DNA of 64,000 bases from Candidatus Hydrogenedentota bacterium (GTDB lineage Bacteria; Hydrogenedentota; Hydrogenedentia; Hydrogenedentales; JAEUWI01): the NCBI GenBank assembly GCA_019637335.1, contig JAHBVV010000004.1, forward strand, positions 80,471 to 144,470, given 5' to 3'. Below, in pieces: positions 18,758-43,100 of this stretch. The number at the start of each line of letters is the position of its first letter. The first letter of the stretch is position 1. The notes beneath the pieces are model-generated. The model searched no databases, was not told the DNA's origin, and saw only the letters and a list, made by a program, of their open reading frames with translations. The position numbers were made by a program, and so were the translations under genes.

Positions 18758-19264
18758 ATGATTGAAAAGATCCTGAAAGAGCAGAAACGAATGAAGAAGA
18801 GACTGCGGGAGACCTATGTGTACCGCGTCTTCGGCGAAAAGCTCTTTCACAGCCGGCTCTGGGTGCATGATCAGCGCGCGATCGCGGGCGGGCTCGCGCT
18901 GGGGATGTTTATCGCTTTCACACCCACCATCCCCCTCCAAATGCTCCTTGCGGCGTGCGGCGCGCTCTACTTTCGCCTGAACCTCCCCATCGCGCTGGCC
19001 GCATGCTGGGTCACGAACCCGGTAACCATGGCGCCAATCTACATGACCGCATGGAAGGTCGGGCGCTATATCCTTGAGGAAGTGGCCTTTGTGGAGGATA
19101 CCTTCGATCTTTTTTCGCAGCGCACGCGTATTGGCAGCATTATACGCCACAGCGCGTACCTGTGGACCGGTTCCCTGATCCTGGCCACCTGTGTCGCCAC
19201 GCTCTCCTATATCGTCGCCCGGCTGGCCTGGGGTCTGGGAGAGCGGATCTTCGCGCGGCGCTGA
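18758..19264 (+). CDS. DUF2062 domain membrane protein
   Basis: WVHDQRAIAGGLALGMFIAFTP...LAACWVTNPVTMAPIY pattern. Confidence 0.65.
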   Translation: MIEKILKEQKRMKKRLRETYVYRVFGEKLFHSRLWVHDQRAIAGGLALGMFIAFTPTIPLQMLLAACGALYFRLNLPIALAACWVTNPVTMAPIYMTAWKVGRYILEEVAFVEDTFDLFSQRTRIGSIIRHSAYLWTGSLILATCVATLSYIVARLAWGLGERIFARR

Positions 19265-19341: not shown

Positions 19342-19590
19342 ATGTACTGGGCGCAAACGGATTCCTGGTATCTCGAACGGATTATCTGGCTGGTGGCGGG
19401 CAGCTTCACGCTGGCCGGCACGCTGCTGGCCTGGCTGGTCAGCCCGTGGTGGCTCCTGCTTACCGGGCTGGTCGGGGTGAACCTGCTGATATTCGCCTTT
19501 ACCGGCTTCTGCATCATGGCGAATATCCTTACGGCGCTCGGGGCCCGATCCCGCGTGCCCGGCGCGCCGTCACCGTTGGGTGAAGAATAG
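19342..19590 (+). CDS. DUF2892 (YgaP-like) small membrane protein
   Basis: Start MYWAQTDSWYLERIIWLVAG... with GGAGG RBS. Contains the FTGFCIMANILTALG motif. The track ORF 19162..19590 begins in an upstream overlap. Confidence 0.55.
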   Translation: MYWAQTDSWYLERIIWLVAGSFTLAGTLLAWLVSPWWLLLTGLVGVNLLIFAFTGFCIMANILTALGARSRVPGAPSPLGEE

Positions 19591-19752
19591 CGCGCGCCCG
19601 GGACCCGCGCGGCCCGGCGTTCATTCCAACGAATAGTTTTCGGGCTCGGGCGGTATATCCTCCATCCGGCGCGCTATGCTTTTACGGCGGCCCGTGCTAC
19701 ACTACCCCGAACGAGGAACGGGCCACCCCCGATGGCGGCCCTTGCAGGAGGA

Positions 19753-20586
19753 ATGACGCGCATGTTTGGAGCAATTGGACGCTGGTTTCGCGCGGTGGGC
19801 TATTTTTTGTCGGGCAATATCGACGCGTCGCGGCGTAATCTGGACACCAACCCCCATGTGATGCAGGCCCGCTACGACGACGTGGTGCGCGACAAGACCG
19901 CGCGCTTCCACCAGTACAAGCAGGCGGTCGCGGGCCTGATCGCGCAGCAGGAGGGCAAGATCCAGACCGCCAAGACGCTGACCGAAGAAATCCGCCGCCT
20001 CGATCAGCTTAAGGCGGGGGCCCTGGCGAAGGCGCGCAAAAAAGTGGAGGAGCTGAAGGCCCAGGGCGTCGCGCAGGAACAAATCAAGCTCAACGACGAG
20101 TATATGAAATGCCTCGCGGCCTACAACGACTTTACGTCCACGCTCGACGAGAAGAACAGGCACGTCGAGGATCTCGAAAAGGATATCGACGACTACGGCG
20201 CGCGCATCAAGGAGCACAAGCTCCAGATGCAGGGGCTCATGCGCGAAATCGAGAAGATTAAATCCGAATCGAAGGACGCCGTGGCCGATGTGATTTCCGC
20301 GCGCGAGGAAAAGGAGATCGCGGACGCCCTGGCCGGCCTCTCGCAGGATGGCAGCGACGCCGACCTTCAGGAACTGCGCAAGCTCCGCACCGAGGTCAAG
20401 GCGGAGGCCCGCATCTCCAAGGAACTGAGCGGAACCAACACGCGCGTGCTGGAGGAAGAGTTCCTGGCCTACGCGATGCAGTCGGAAAAGAGCGACGAGT
20501 TCGACGCCCTCATCGGGCTTGCGGGCGAGGCGGAACAGGCCGCCAGCGCGCCGGAGAAGGACGAGGCCGAGCGCCTGCCGGAATAA
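19753..20586 (+). CDS. PspA/IM30 (Vipp1) family protein, ESCRT-III superfamily
   Basis: Long coiled-coil protein. N-terminal MFGAIGRWFRAVGYFLSGNIDASRRNLDTNPHVMQARYDDVVRD matches the PspA N-terminus. Confidence 0.8.
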   Translation: MTRMFGAIGRWFRAVGYFLSGNIDASRRNLDTNPHVMQARYDDVVRDKTARFHQYKQAVAGLIAQQEGKIQTAKTLTEEIRRLDQLKAGALAKARKKVEELKAQGVAQEQIKLNDEYMKCLAAYNDFTSTLDEKNRHVEDLEKDIDDYGARIKEHKLQMQGLMREIEKIKSESKDAVADVISAREEKEIADALAGLSQDGSDADLQELRKLRTEVKAEARISKELSGTNTRVLEEEFLAYAMQSEKSDEFDALIGLAGEAEQAASAPEKDEAERLPE

Positions 20587-20607
20587 GGACCGCGAGGGGA
20601 GCTGACC

Positions 20608-22416
20608 ATGGACTCACCCGCCTACGGGTTCCTCCGCGAGGCCGGCCGGATAATCAATGCCGGCCAGTCGCGTTCCATCGCCCTGACGGGCAACATCTAC
20701 GACCTCTTTTGCCTTTCCGGCGACAGCCGCGGCGCCTATGTCCCCCTGATCGATTTCCTGATTGGCCACTGGTCCATCCCAAGCCACATCCTCCTCGTGT
20801 ATGAGGTGAATGGGCCAATCCGCTTCGTCCGCGAGGGCGATCAGGCCCGGCTCCGGGACGCCTGGCTTCAGTGGCGCACGGGGAAAACCGCCGACGACCT
20901 GGCGATCCAGCGCATGCTCGACCGGAGCCCCCCGATGGCGGCGGGCGAACGGGACTTCGATGTCCAGCTCCAGCAGGCGATCGGCCAGCCGTCCGTCGCG
21001 CTGGAACTGCTTCGCCAGCTTTGCCTCTGCTCGCGCAGCGAACTGAACGGCCAGCCGCTGCTCCGGCAGAACCTCATTGTGCTTATTGAAGGCGCGGACC
21101 TCATCCTGCCGGAAGGCGAAATCGCGCACCTCTCCGATCGCGATCGGCACCGCCTCAATATCTGCTATGACTGGTTCTCCGACCCCGGCTTCGTCAATGG
21201 CGGGGACGCCGCCGTGTTGATCGCCGAATCCCGCAGCCTCCTCAACCAGCGCATAGCGCGCCTCCCGCACCTCCTGGAGGTCACTGTTCCCGCTCCGGAT
21301 GAGGCCTGCCGGCTGCATTTTATCAATTGGTTTCGGAGCCAGCCCGCCACCGGCGGGCCCCTCGATCTCTGGAGTAGCCCCGAGGACCTGGCGACGGCTT
21401 CCGCCGGCCTCTCCACCCAGGCGCTGATGCAGCTCCTCAAGGGCGCCGCGCACCAGGCGGCCCCGCTCACCCGCGACGCCGTTATCGAGAAAGTCGGCGC
21501 CTACATCGAGATGCAGCTCGGCGAGGACATGGTGGAATTCAAGCGCCCGAGCCACACCCTGGACGACGTGGTGGGCTTTCGCAACCTCAAACGCTTCCTG
21601 CGCGACGAGCTCATGCCGCGCATCGCCGCCGGCGGGGACGACGCCCTGCCCGGCGCGGCGGTGGGCGGCGCCATCGGCAGCGGAAAGACCTTCATCTTCG
21701 AGGCCGTCGCGGCGGAACTCGACATGGTCGTCCTCGTGTTGAAGAACATCCGCAGCCAGTGGTACGGCCAGACCGATGTGCTCTTCGAACGCCTCCGGCG
21801 CGTGCTGGAGGCGCTCTCGAAGGTCCTGATCTTCGTGGACGAGGCCGACACCCAGTTCGGCGGCGTGGGGCCCGAGGAACATTCCACCGAGCGCCGCCTC
21901 ACGGGCAAGATCCAGGCCATGATGTCCGACACGCGCCTGCGCGGCCGCGTTACCTGGCTCCTCATGACCGCGCGCATTCATCTGCTCTCCCCCGACATCC
22001 GCCGGCCCGGGCGCGTCGGCGATCTGATCATCCCCGTCCTCGACCCCGACGGCGCGGACCGCGACGACTTCATCCGCTGGATGGTCCGGCCCGTCCTCGG
22101 GGAGGATTTGGATGAGAAGACCCTGGGCGCCTTGAAACTGGTCACCGCCGACTATTCCGCAGCCAGTTTCGCGGCGATCCGCGCGGAATTGAAGGCCCGC
22201 CACCGCCTCGGACCGCCCCTCACCCTTGACGGGGTGCTCGATGCCATCCACGACCAGCTCGCCCCGCCCATCGAGGAGACCCGCCGCTACCAGACCCTCC
22301 AGGCCCTCGTGAATTGCACCCGCCGCAGCCTGCTGCCGGATCCCGATGCCACCGCGGAAGATCGCGAGGCCTGGACGCGCGAGATCGCCGCACTCGAAGC
22401 GCGGGGGATACGGTAG
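20608..22416 (+). CDS. classic-clade AAA ATPase with large N-terminal domain
   Basis: LDDVVGFRNLKRF, Walker A GGAIGSGKTF, Walker B VLIFVDEAD, sensor-1 LLMTAR. Second region of homology DIRRPGRVGDLIIPVLDPD (compare RPGRFDRxIxVPLPD). 21 bp downstream of the pspA-like gene. Confidence 0.85.
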   Translation: MDSPAYGFLREAGRIINAGQSRSIALTGNIYDLFCLSGDSRGAYVPLIDFLIGHWSIPSHILLVYEVNGPIRFVREGDQARLRDAWLQWRTGKTADDLAIQRMLDRSPPMAAGERDFDVQLQQAIGQPSVALELLRQLCLCSRSELNGQPLLRQNLIVLIEGADLILPEGEIAHLSDRDRHRLNICYDWFSDPGFVNGGDAAVLIAESRSLLNQRIARLPHLLEVTVPAPDEACRLHFINWFRSQPATGGPLDLWSSPEDLATASAGLSTQALMQLLKGAAHQAAPLTRDAVIEKVGAYIEMQLGEDMVEFKRPSHTLDDVVGFRNLKRFLRDELMPRIAAGGDDALPGAAVGGAIGSGKTFIFEAVAAELDMVVLVLKNIRSQWYGQTDVLFERLRRVLEALSKVLIFVDEADTQFGGVGPEEHSTERRLTGKIQAMMSDTRLRGRVTWLLMTARIHLLSPDIRRPGRVGDLIIPVLDPDGADRDDFIRWMVRPVLGEDLDEKTLGALKLVTADYSAASFAAIRAELKARHRLGPPLTLDGVLDAIHDQLAPPIEETRRYQTLQALVNCTRRSLLPDPDATAEDREAWTREIAALEARGIR

Positions 22417-22619: not shown

Positions 22620-22870
22620 ATGCCAACGCATTCTTTCGGCCCGAAGGGCCAACGCAGTTTTCAGCCCCGGGCAACGCCCGGGGTTTGAGCGGCGGGTTTG
22701 TTGTACGCCCTGAAAGGGCAGCACAGTTGAACTTCAGAAACGCTGGACTGGATCACCACTGCGCTGCCCTTTCAGGGCGGGGAAGGTGGTGTCCCCGTGC
22801 TCCCTGGGCGTTGCCCAGGGCTGGGAGCTGCACTGGCCCTTCGGGCCGAAAGACCAGTCGATACGATTTC
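22620..22870. repeat. ~250-bp imperfect palindrome: two ~100-bp inverted arms, each holding three small hairpins
   Basis: Arm A is ggcccgaagggcc...ccccgggcaacgcccgggg...gccctgaaagggcagcacagt. Arm B is its inverted complement at ~85% identity. Spacer is tgaacttcagaaacgctggactggatcacc. Confidence 0.6.
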
Positions 22871-23054
22871 ACCAACTGAGGCTCCAACCGGCATACATTG
22901 GCGGTTCCGGAAAATTCGGGCACGAAGAAACGCCTGTGAATAATCCCGTACGCTCAAACTGGATGCGCCATAGATTGTCGGTAGCGACGTCGCGTTGCAC
23001 GCGCCATAGAGGCCGCCGGAAAATCCATTGGCAGCGGAATATAAGGAAGCCGAA

Positions 23055-23258
23055 ATGAAACTGAAAGTTATCGTTCACGAAGCGGAGGAAGGCGGATTCT
23101 GGGCCGAAGTGCCCGCCATCCCCGGTTGCGCGACCCAGGGCGACACCCTGGACGAACTGATGGAAAACCTTCACGAGGCGATCGAAGGGTGTCTGTCCGT
23201 GGACCTTCAGGACATCGAAATGGCCACCACGGATAGAGTACTGGAGCTTACCGTTTGA
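23055..23258 (+). CDS. hicB: HicB-family antitoxin
   Basis: MKLKVIVHEAEEGGFWAEVPAIPGCATQGDTLDELMENLHEAIEGCL: UPF0150/HicB signature. Confidence 0.75.
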   Translation: MKLKVIVHEAEEGGFWAEVPAIPGCATQGDTLDELMENLHEAIEGCLSVDLQDIEMATTDRVLELTV

Positions 23259-23461
23259 AGCCCGTAAGCGGAAGGCAAGTGTGCCGGCTGCTGGAAGAGA
23301 GGGGATGGGTGCTCAAGCGAATCAACGGAAGTCACCATGTCTATGCGAAAGCAGGTGAGGTGGCCCGTATTTCCGTTCCGGTGCATGGCGGGAAGGCGCT
23401 GAAGTTGGGGCTGCAACGGCACATCATGAGAGTTGCCGCGATCGGCGAAGGCGATCTGTAG
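23255..23461 (+). CDS. hicA: HicA-family toxin (mRNA interferase)
   Basis: LEERGWVLKRINGSHHVYAKAGEVARISVPVHGGKALKLGLQRHIMRVA. 4-bp overlap with hicB. Confidence 0.75.
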   Translation: MKPVSGRQVCRLLEERGWVLKRINGSHHVYAKAGEVARISVPVHGGKALKLGLQRHIMRVAAIGEGDL

Positions 23462-41259: not shown

Positions 41260-42360
41260 ACCCGTTCCCAAGCTCTGTTTCGAAGCCTATGTCGCCCCTC
41301 CGGGACTTATGTGGCGGGGATGGGCCTTGATCCCAGGACTTGCTTCGCTGCGCCCTGGGCTACGATATGCCGCCACTTCGTGGCTAAGAAATGTTATTCA
41401 CTCATTCCCAGGCTCCGCTTGGGAGTGCAGTTCCCGAAGCTCCGCTTCGAAGGGCCGTAACGCGTCTGTGTCGCCCCTCCGGGACTTATGGGGCGGGGAT
41501 GGGTCTTGATCCCAGGACTTGCTTCGCTGCGCCCTGGGCTACGATATGCCGCCACTTCGTGGCTAAACCGGCGCTCGACGTCCAGTTGCTGGTGAGTGGT
41601 CGAGAGATTACGCTCTGGCCTACAGCACGCCCTGATGGGAGCCGTACCCCCAACCGAACGGCCAGCGCAGGAATCCGCGCCGAGGGGTCGCATTGCGGAA
41701 ACCATGCGCTGCCCACACGCCCATCCCCCATGGAGGCCAACGCAAGAATCAGTCGCGAGGCAGCGCCATATACACTCGTTCCCAGGCTCCGCTTGGGAAT
41801 GCAGTCCCCCAAGCTCTGCTTCGGAGGGCCGCAACGCGCCTATGTCGCCCCTCCGGGACTTATGGGGTGGGGATGGGCCTTGATCCCAGGACTTGCTTCG
41901 CTGCGCCCTGGGCTACGTTATGCCGCCACTTCGTGGCTAAGAGATGGTCGTGGCGGGGCACCCACAAGCCTTTGCGGCGAAGCCGCAGAGCTTGAGGGTG
42001 GCACCCTCGGGCTGCCGATGGTGATTGCGGTCGGGGTTGCGCTCGAGAACCGGGTTTATGATGTGAGGCTTGGATTCTGCTGGCGACTCCGGTGGGGAAA
42101 TACCCCTTGAACCTGGCTGTGCGACATTCCGCGCGATCGTACGCCACGGTCGACGGGGCCTGGGTGCATCAGGGCTATCGATCGGGGTACGTCCCTTCGC
42201 GCCTTCCCCCGCTCTGCTTAGAAACGCGGACCCCGAAGGGTCGCAATGCGGAAACCATACTCGGCCCACACCCCGTCACCCAAGGGGGCCAACGCAAGAA
42301 TCAGTCGCGAGGCGGCGCCATATCGTAGCCCAGTGGCGAGCGTAGCGAGTCCTGGGTCAC
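41260..42360. repeat. REP array, ~95-bp unit (cgcccctccgggacttatggggcggggatgggccttgatcccaggacttgcttcgctgcgccctgggctacgNtatgccgccacttcgtggct) in both orientations, plus a second ~150-bp repeat
   Basis: Units at ~41281, 41468, 41841, and inverted partial ones at 41390 and 42300-42360. The gcattgcggaaaccat...ggccaacgcaagaatcagtcgcgaggc segment is repeated at 41690 and 42240. Confidence 0.75.
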
Positions 42361-42414
42361 CCGCGCACAGCGCCTAAGAAAGTCCCAACGGGGCGGCATA
42401 GGCCCCGCGTCCGT

Positions 42415-42867
42415 TCAGTCCCAGATGTACTGCGGATCGTATTCCACCTCGTGGGCTTTCAAGAATCCCAGGTACTCCGCCTTAAACGTGTATTTGGCGT
42501 GATGGACCTCCTGGTTCTGGACGTATCGATAAACGGTTTCCTTCTGGCTCGCACTCACGGTGAAGGCGCCGTAGCCCGCCTGCCACGCGAAATCGGAGAG
42601 CGCCGGCCAGGTGCGGTGAATCCAGCCGGAGCTGTTGGATTTGATTTCGGACAGTACGTTCTTGAGTGCGTGGTTCTGGCTCAATTTCACCAGAAGGTGA
42701 ACGTGGTCTTCGGTGCCGTTGATGATGAGGGGGATGCCGTCCACGCCCTGCACCGCGCCCGCGAGGTAGCGGTGCACGTCCCCGCGCAGATTGGGCGTAA
42801 GAAATCGTACGCGGCCCTTGGTAGAAAAGACAAGGTGGTAGATGAGATTGCAGTGTGTCTGTGACAT
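42415..42867 (-). CDS. REP-associated tyrosine transposase (RAYT), IS200/IS605 Y1 family
   Basis: LIYHLVFSTKGRVRFL, HVHLLV (HxH) and the C-terminal Y in VYRYVQNQ. Flanked by REPs on both sides in both orientations. Confidence 0.85.
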   Translation of the reverse strand: MSQTHCNLIYHLVFSTKGRVRFLTPNLRGDVHRYLAGAVQGVDGIPLIINGTEDHVHLLVKLSQNHALKNVLSEIKSNSSGWIHRTWPALSDFAWQAGYGAFTVSASQKETVYRYVQNQEVHHAKYTFKAEYLGFLKAHEVEYDPQYIWD

Positions 42868-42924
42868 GGTGGCCTCCCGTGATGTGCGCCATTGCAGTAT
42901 AGTGTTGTTTTTGGAGTTTACCGA

Positions 42925-43100
42925 TGGGAGGAGGCGTGAATCCAGAACGCGCCTATGTCGCCCCTCCGGGACTTATGGGGCGGGGATGGGCCTTGATCCC
43001 AGGACTTGCTTCGCTGCGCCCTGGGCTACGTTATGCCGCCACTTCGTGGCTAGGAAATGCTATTCGATGGCCCAGTGGCGAGCGAAGCGAGTCCCCTCCC
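42925..43100. repeat. REP copy plus inverted partial copy on the right flank of the RAYT
   Basis: Same 95-bp unit at 42955-43050, then an inverted fragment cccagtggcgagcgaagcgagtcc. Confidence 0.6.

Follow-up and report, generated by a model that had tools for sequence, protein, structure and literature searches.

A PspA-like gene and a tandem AAA ATPase gene as a candidate membrane-remodeling pair in “Candidatus Hydrogenedentota” and other bacteria

We describe here a two-gene module from a “Candidatus Hydrogenedentota” bacterium (assembly GCA_019637335.1), found in a 64,000-nucleotide (nt) stretch of contig JAHBVV010000004.1 (positions 80,471 to 144,470 of the forward strand; hereafter, the window). 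It consists of a gene for a divergent PspA/Vipp1-like coiled-coil protein and a gene for a type II classic-clade ATPase with two AAA domains, D1 being degenerate and D2 active (Table 1). The gene structure and domain composition of this pair, the superfamily relationships of its products, and its linkage across phyla are established. We see an even chance that the pair is a bacterial membrane-remodeling system, in which the AAA unfoldase would act on the PspA-like coat via its C-terminal tail. This idea is not new, as it has been published by Ravi, Anantharaman, Aravind, Gennaro, et al. from comparative genomics (mSystems 2024; PMC11237479); the value of the present analysis lies in a well-defined minimal example and in specific testable features, not in discovery.

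The open reading frame (ORF) of the PspA-like protein has three possible starts, at positions 19732, 19753, and 19762, and a stop codon at 20584 to 20586. The start at 19762, which gives a product of 274 amino acids (aa), is favored because of the Shine-Dalgarno (SD) sequence GGAGGA at 19746 to 19751 and the N-termini of the homologues, which read MFxAIGRW. The ATPase gene begins with an ATG at 20608 and has its own ribosome-binding site (RBS), GAGGGGAG, just upstream. As stated in a preliminary description of this DNA, the two ORFs lie on the forward strand with a gap of 21 bp. No terminator-like site was found between them, which suggests that the two genes are cotranscribed.

The linkage of the two genes was assessed in 80 genome loci that were fetched through ATPase-specific peptide patterns alone. 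A PspA-like gene is located upstream of the ATPase gene, on the same strand, in 65 of these 80 loci, and in 13 of the 15 loci without it, the sequence upstream is shorter than 3.6 kb. The adjacency seen in the window is conserved in other genomes far beyond chance and spans at least 6 phyla, which include Hydrogenedentota, Verrucomicrobiota, Planctomycetota, Sumerlaeota, Acidobacteriota, and Desulfobacterota, among others; across phyla, the PspA-like protein and the ATPase are 57 to 66% identical. In 14 loci, the genes are directly adjacent (15 to 221 bp apart): the Hydrogenedentota relatives L001 to L005, L007, L013, and L017, as well as L006, L029, L039, L043, L053, and L057. No recurrent third gene was found in these short-form loci. 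Because these 14 loci and the window all show direct adjacency with no other conserved neighbor, the PspA-like/ATPase dyad is the conserved core, and the window represents its minimal form. About 50 of the 80 loci have a long operon, with genes for a solute-binding protein (SBP), a permease, and an ATP-binding cassette (ABC) ATPase between the PspA-like gene and the ATPase gene, and with genes for a PBP+OmpA protein and a transmembrane (TM) coiled-coil protein upstream of the PspA-like gene. Homologues of these extra genes were not found anywhere in the window.

Some of these loci deserve separate mention. L015 and L052 are the only ones that have 7 kb of upstream sequence and yet lack the PspA-like gene; L052 retains the permease and the ABC ATPase, L015 retains no operon gene, and the partner may be unlinked or lost in both. 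The TM and coiled-coil protein of about 260 aa, encoded directly upstream of the PspA-like gene (positions 2332 to 3126 in L033, with equivalents in 46 loci), has no Pfam match; it is probably what Ravi et al. call “SIG+TM+Snf7” and could be a second component of the ESCRT-III-like kind, one absent from the window. Full-length copies of the operon are also seen in L024 (DATKVG010000055.1, Bathyarchaeia archaeon) and L045 (CAZNOE010000095.1, Bifidobacteriaceae), whose labels are out of line with those of the other loci, so that binning contamination or horizontal transfer is possible. With respect to the window itself, the preliminary description had assigned it to a probable Planctomycete. For both dyad genes, as well as for the downstream TerB and DUF3686 genes, the nearest named relatives come instead from metagenome-assembled genomes (MAGs) of “Candidatus Hydrogenedentota”, and the loci labeled Planctomycetota are only 57 to 63% identical. 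The link to elaborate membrane invaginations that went with that assignment is not supported; the module occurs in many phyla that lack elaborate endomembranes.

The only Pfam match of the ATPase is to the AAA family (PF00004), at aa 354 to 471 (E value, 3.7e-13). In the family alignment, the Walker A motif (GxIGxGKT), the Walker B motif (DEAD), the pore loop 1 (W-[YF]-G), and the RRPGR arginine fingers are invariant. The AlphaFold2 (AF2) model of the protein is confident, with a predicted local distance difference test (pLDDT) score of 84 and a predicted template modeling (pTM) score of 0.76, and places two helices, at aa 556 to 569 and 583 to 598, in the C-terminal extension. Assignment to the classic AAA clade, already made from the sequence in the preliminary description, is borne out by PF00004, the motifs, and the phmmer and fold matches alike. 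Of the motifs listed there, Walker A, Walker B, LLMTAR, and RPGR are all present, but the loss of the sensor-1 Asn, to which we return below, had been missed. A PspF-type regulator was considered and rejected, as it had been before: the ATPase matches PF00004 only, and Pfam gives no Sigma54_activat or helix-turn-helix (HTH) domain in it. An exact-sequence look-up showed that the window ATPase is not on record.

The N-terminal part of the ATPase, previously taken for a novel domain of about 330 aa, turns out to be a degenerate AAA module. In the AF2 model, the N-terminal 305 aa, which begin with a helix at 7 to 18 and a strand at 23 to 28, follow the strand/helix order of an AAA core with its lid. 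Alignment of the profiles of the N-terminal and C-terminal halves with hhalign gave E values of 1.4e-4 (lid, 76 columns) and 4.9e-4 (224 columns) and brought four motifs into register: LIVLIEGAD with VLIFVDEAD, DRHRLNICYDWFSDPGF with TERRLTGKIQAMMSDTRL, VLIAESRSLLNQRIARLP with LLMTARIHLLSPDIRRPG, and VTVPAPDEACR with IPVLDPDGADR. Fold alignments of more than 300 residues were obtained with tandem AAA proteins only (Pex1, 464 residues; Rix7, 338 to 345 residues), and the profile of the N-terminal half alone had no match in the PDB. There is no P-loop in D1, where LTGNIYDLF (aa 26 to 34) occupies the place of Walker A; LIVLIEGAD (aa 156 to 164) is Walker B-like, AESRS (aa 206 to 210) stands at sensor 1, and VTVPAPDEACR (aa 225 to 235) marks the start of the lid. 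Within the family, D1 and D2 are equally conserved. Judged from these alignments and the model, the ATPase is a type II AAA protein with a dead but highly conserved D1.

The preliminary description had also called the ATPase Vps4-like and had raised the possibility of an N-terminal MIT domain. Neither view is supported. Pfam gives no match to MIT, the N-terminus being an α/β AAA module; there are two AAA domains; and no β-domain is inserted in the lid, which is all-helical in the AF2 model (aa 482 to 549). The sequence and fold scores do not favor Vps4 over Cdc48/VAT, katanin, or spastin. In phmmer searches of PDB sequences, VAT, Cdc48, p97, AFG2, and NVL come first (E values of 1e-20 to 1e-12), followed by katanin (7e-9) and Vps4 (1e-7), and in NCBIfam the CDC48 subfamily (1.6e-13) is placed above CdvC (9.4e-8), both matches being far under the respective cut-offs. 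With a D2-only profile, the scores of p97 N-D1 (54 bits) and katanin (53 bits) are nearly the same, and Vps4 is not among the 60 matches listed. These comparisons indicate that the ATPase is by descent an independent Cdc48-like tandem AAA protein and not a Vps4 orthologue.

The relationship of the upstream protein to PspA becomes visible only at the level of its family. In scans of individual family members, PF04012 (PspA_IM30) is the commonest Pfam family, matched by 31 of 37 members at E values of ≤1 and by 47 of 113 at ≤0.01; the best score is 27 bits (E value, 4e-6), and no member reaches the gathering score of 33.9 bits. A broader sample was formed by 129 diverse representatives taken from 50%-identity clusters. 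PF04012 was matched by 19 of these divergent proteins, every other Pfam family by only one. When the profile built from this sample was compared with the PDB, Vipp1/PspA chains from two species ranked first among natural proteins (E values of 6e-8 to 5e-6; Nostoc Vipp1 6zvr, 6.1e-8; Synechocystis Vipp1, 3.6e-6). The match to Vipp1 is colinear over α1 and α3 to α5, in two stretches, with the motif ELAG.D in common. Among the profiles tried against the PDB, only this diverse one retrieved Vipp1/PspA; the narrow family profile (37 sequences; effective number of sequences [Neff], about 2) had no match. Although it counts many sequences, the family is compact, with 57 to 60% identity across phyla and 572 representatives of 50%-identity clusters at E values of ≤1e-3 among 1.84 billion, and at HMMER sensitivity it stays separate from canonical PspA. 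We conclude from these profile comparisons that the upstream protein is a member of the PspA/Vipp1 (ESCRT-III) superfamily and forms a divergent branch of its own there, a membership that holds at the profile level and not at the family threshold.

The AF2 model of this protein (in the 277-aa numbering) contains a helix at residues 5 to 19, a long hairpin formed by residues 34 to 103 and 115 to 198 (70 and 84 residues; pLDDT of >90), and a helix at 202 to 245, a predicted ESCRT-III-like layout of an α0 helix, a long hairpin, and more helices. Residues 1 to 18 have a hydrophobic moment of 0.50, a mean hydrophobicity of 0.37, and a charge of +2; the moment was equaled in 3 of 5,000 shuffles, and the R, W, and G positions of this helix are conserved among the homologues. 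At the other end, the protein has a tail composed of a conserved helix, EFDALIGLA (aa 246 to 254; EFDxLxGL in the family), a variable linker of about 17 to 23 aa, and the terminal tripeptide LPE (aa 272 to 274). LPE forms the C-terminal end in all 64 of the 64 ATPase-linked PspA-like genes with a complete 3′ end. We regard it as a candidate handle for ATPase docking or engagement, because an invariant free C-terminal tripeptide on a flexible linker is a feature that AAA unfoldases dock on or engage. The MIT-interacting motifs (MIMs) of ESCRT-III proteins are the obvious parallel to this tail.

Table 1. Coordinates of the gene pair, its parts, and neighboring genes in the window
Feature	Position (nt)	Strand	Basis or remarks
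Gene for divergent PspA/Vipp1-like (ESCRT-III superfamily) coiled-coil protein, 274 aa	19762..20586	+	ORF, SD, N-termini of homologues, family profile
N-terminal amphipathic cationic helix MFGAIGRWFRAVGYFLSG, candidate membrane-binding α0	19762..19815	+	Hydrophobic moment, conservation, model
C-terminal tail, candidate ATPase docking/engagement motif	20497..20583	+	Conservation
Intergenic spacer, 21 bp, with RBS GAGGGGAG (20594-20601)	20587..20607	+	Sequence
Gene for type II (tandem) classic-clade AAA ATPase, 602 aa, degenerate D1 and active D2	20608..22416	+	
D1, degenerate AAA module without P-loop, aa 1-305	20608..21522	+	hhalign, model, alignments
D2, active classic AAA module, aa 306-550	21523..22257	+	Pfam, motifs, family alignment
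Walker A GGAIGSGKT, aa 353-361	21664-21690	+	
Pore loop 1 W385-Y-G387	21751-21774	+	
Walker B LIFVDEAD, aa 407-414	21826-21849	+	
Sensor-1 region LLMTAR, aa 451-456	in D2	+	Ala replaces Asn
Arginine fingers RRPGR, aa 465-469	22000-22014	+	
C-terminal helical extension after lid domain, conserved, ETRRYQTLQALVNCTRRSLLPDP ... W..E...LE	22258..22413	+	Invariant residues
DUF2062 protein	18758-19264		Upstream of pair; E value, 8e-36
YgaP-like/DUF2892 TM protein	19345-19590		Upstream of pair; E value, 2e-8
HicB-like antitoxin (76 aa) and HicA toxin (68 aa), overlapping	23028-23461	+	Between dyad and TerB gene
TerB_N+TerB protein, 672 aa	23551-25569	-	Matches Shango SngA
DUF3686+DUF7902+AAA protein, 1725 aa	25771-30948	-	Adjoins TerB protein

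In the proposed mechanism, the N-terminal amphipathic helix of the PspA-like protein would attach it to the cytoplasmic side of the inner membrane, and its long helical hairpin would let it polymerize into a coat. The ATPase would be a hexameric type II AAA unfoldase, whose nucleotide-free D1 ring could serve as a scaffold and as a substrate-docking platform for the coat tail, while the D2 ring with its aromatic W-Y/F-G pore loop would use ATP to pull on the exposed flexible tail (EFDxLxGL helix, linker, and LPE). Such pulling would lead to extraction and recycling of subunits and, with it, to turnover or remodeling of the coat. The Walker A and B motifs, the arginine fingers, and the aromatic pore loop, all of them intact and invariant, speak for threading competence; the hydrolysis motifs are intact except for sensor 1. 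Polymerization, membrane binding, recognition of the tail, and disassembly as the direction of action are what we infer from these features, and a functional parallel with Vps4 acting on ESCRT-III appears reasonable by analogy. A stronger form of the proposal would make the dyad a true bacterial counterpart of ESCRT-III/Vps4, with a Cdc48-derived tandem AAA protein with a dead D1 that threads an LPE-tagged tail and disassembles the polymers; this we advance tentatively, giving it somewhat less than an even chance. If it is true, ATP-driven remodeling of the ESCRT-III type extends beyond archaea and eukaryotes, and the dyad could be a living analogue or relative of the Cdc48-to-Vps4 transition inferred by Makarova et al. 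2024.

Several observations weigh against a coat-disassembling pair. At sensor 1, the family has an invariant Ala (T454-A455-R456) where the canonical residue is Asn; in other AAA proteins, this change impairs hydrolysis, and the ATPase could be slow or subject to regulation. The two genes are separated by three ABC-transporter genes in most lineages, with the genes for the TM coiled-coil and PBP-OmpA proteins upstream, and the substrate could be another product of the operon. A literature search found no experimental study of a bacterial PspA-AAA disassembly pair. The remaining objections concern the upstream protein. Taken alone, it has no PF04012 match in Pfam even at E values of ≤10, and its searches against Pfam, NCBIfam, and (with phmmer) the PDB return only coiled-coil noise, with no PDB match; the label PspA/IM30 used in the preliminary description is supported for the superfamily, at the profile level, but cannot be read from the single sequence. 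Comparisons of family profiles with the single sequence of Escherichia coli PspA in hhalign were negative twice. Foldseek searches with the AF2 model returned many full-length Vipp1 structures with E values of 0.02 to 0.3, which are not significant, and other coiled coils scored equally, those of PcsB and Smc being among the top matches.

These objections to the upstream protein, together with the PF04012 scores that stay below the gathering score and the compactness of a family of 572 representatives, would fit a protein with no relationship to PspA, either a generic coiled coil or a cytoskeletal protein, in which case the AAA protein would be a general unfoldase or chaperone with no part in membrane remodeling. 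We consider this improbable: the diverse profile has Vipp1/PspA as its best natural matches in the PDB, colinear and with a motif in common, PF04012 stands out among the Pfam families matched by the 129 divergent members, and the amphipathic N-terminal helix and the helix layout fit the superfamily. Because of the result obtained with the broad profile, we do not read the negative hhalign comparisons as a refutation but put them down to the limited sensitivity of a template consisting of a single sequence. A different objection makes the PspA-like protein an adaptor or regulator that responds to membrane stress by recruiting or gating the AAA unfoldase, whose extraction or remodeling activity would then be directed at other membrane or envelope proteins (in the long operon, for example, the ABC transporter or the TM coiled-coil protein); PspA-PspF and the adaptors of Cdc48, Msp1, and FtsH would be analogues. 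The gene content of the long operon in about 50 of the 80 loci, with the SBP, permease, and ABC ATPase between the two genes and the PBP+OmpA and TM coiled-coil proteins upstream, is in line with such a role, E. coli PspA does regulate an AAA+ protein (PMC7619361), and a D1 that is highly conserved without nucleotide motifs is what would be expected of an adaptor-binding ring. However, the dyad stands alone, with no recurrent third gene, in 14 loci and the window, and a different substrate would in these cases need a gene at another site; moreover, the LPE, invariant, free, and preceded by a flexible linker, resembles an engagement tag more closely than it does a surface for regulation. We regard an adaptor role as less likely than action on the coat, but it is the main alternative and clearly more plausible than an unrelated coiled coil.

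The neighborhood of the dyad in the window raises one more alternative, namely, that the pair belongs to a defense or stress island with HicAB, TerB (SngA-like), and DUF3686-AAA genes and has a role in phage defense. The TerB_N+TerB protein matches Shango SngA in PADLOC (E value, 5.9e-27), the hicBA-like gene pair lies between it and the dyad, and TerB and DUF3686 genes are also found downstream of the dyad in three close relatives (the Hydrogenedentales L002, L003, and L005). Yet PADLOC has no real match for either dyad gene, the TerB/DUF3686 neighborhood is limited to the nearest clade and lies on the opposite strand, convergent with the dyad, and all other lineages have the ABC-transporter operon or a variable context. 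A defense role is accordingly very improbable, and action of the ATPase on a PspA-like coat is the reading that we prefer and compare with known systems in what follows.

The closest published counterparts are the “PspA + inactive-classical-AAA+classical-AAA” dyads, which Ravi et al. described along with a long operon (PBPB+OmpA, permease, ABC-ATPase, and TM+Snf7; examples, AEY64321.1/AEY64320.1 and OGG56892.1) and for which they proposed ATP-dependent membrane remodeling comparable to that by Snf7/VPS4 (PMC11237479). Compared by published description, the window shares with these dyads a PspA-superfamily gene adjoining a gene for a two-AAA protein whose N-terminal copy is inactive. The extra components that they list recur in about 50 of the 80 relatives, whereas the window itself has none of them; the gene order in their Clostridium example is AAA and then PspA, the reverse of that in the window; and the window has a PspA-like protein from a subfamily that is compact and divergent and scores below the Pfam threshold. 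The ESCRT-III/Vps4 (CdvB/CdvC) systems resemble the window pair in that a superfamily gene lies directly upstream of a classic-clade AAA gene with an aromatic pore loop and in that the C-terminal tail of the partner is flexible and ends in a conserved motif, which recalls MIM. However, LPE is unlike both MIM1 and MIM2, and the window ATPase differs from Vps4/CdvC, which are not its nearest relatives, in lacking MIT and the β-domain and in having two AAA domains instead of one. Instead of Vps4 orthology, the pair suggests that a Cdc48-like ATPase was recruited independently.

Among the type II classic AAA proteins (Cdc48/p97/VAT, NVL/Rix7, AFG2, Pex1/Pex6, and NSF), with which it shares the tandem AAA domains, the window ATPase is set apart from the Cdc48 type by starting directly with D1, with no double-psi-barrel or other substrate-recognition domain, by the complete loss of the D1 P-loop, by its unique conserved C-terminal extension, and by the change of the sensor-1 Asn to Ala. 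The canonical Psp/Vipp1/IM30 systems share with the pair the superfamily-level relationship of the coat, the N-terminal amphipathic helix, and the pairing with an AAA+ protein. Their PspF, however, is a sigma-54 activator of another AAA+ clade with an HTH domain, both features that are absent from the window ATPase; the window also has no PspB or PspC genes, and its coat protein is longer (274 aa) and has a distinct C-terminal tail. Liu et al. 2021 considered “an equivalent ATPase” for Vipp1/PspA to be an open question (PMC8281802). With about 60% identity over at least 6 phyla, the compact module of two genes would make a tractable system for studying whether ATP drives the remodeling of bacterial ESCRT-III-like coats; the C-terminal LPE provides a candidate handle in it, and the window dyad is its clean minimal form.

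As to the other neighbors of the pair, the DUF2062 and YgaP-like/DUF2892 membrane proteins encoded upstream of it, which were noted in the preliminary description, have the corresponding Pfam-type matches. Their suggested tie to the pair did not hold up, and they were rejected as parts of the system: none of the 80 loci, including those of relatives with 73 to 75% identity of the ATPase, has a homologue of either close to the dyad. About 215 bp past the ATPase stop codon there is a nested imperfect inverted repeat (22632 to 22853), with outer arms at 22632 to 22683 and 22802 to 22853 (52 nt, 87% complementarity) and inner arms at 22706 to 22727 and 22758 to 22779 (22 nt, 95% complementarity). 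The repeat has no Rfam match, and no RNA was found by Rfam near the dyad locus; the repeat could be a miniature inverted-repeat transposable element (MITE)-like or repetitive extragenic palindromic (REP)-like element or a structured RNA. Farther downstream, the window contains four copies of the Acido-Lenti-1 small RNA (RF01687), at 41332, 41511, 41885, and 42998 (span, 41332 to 43051, forward strand), with scores of 39.6 to 40.1 bits against a gathering score of 37. The window has a single low-GC stretch, at 38 to 42 kb (GC fraction of 0.49 to 0.56, compared with about 0.63 elsewhere), and the four copies lie within or next to it.

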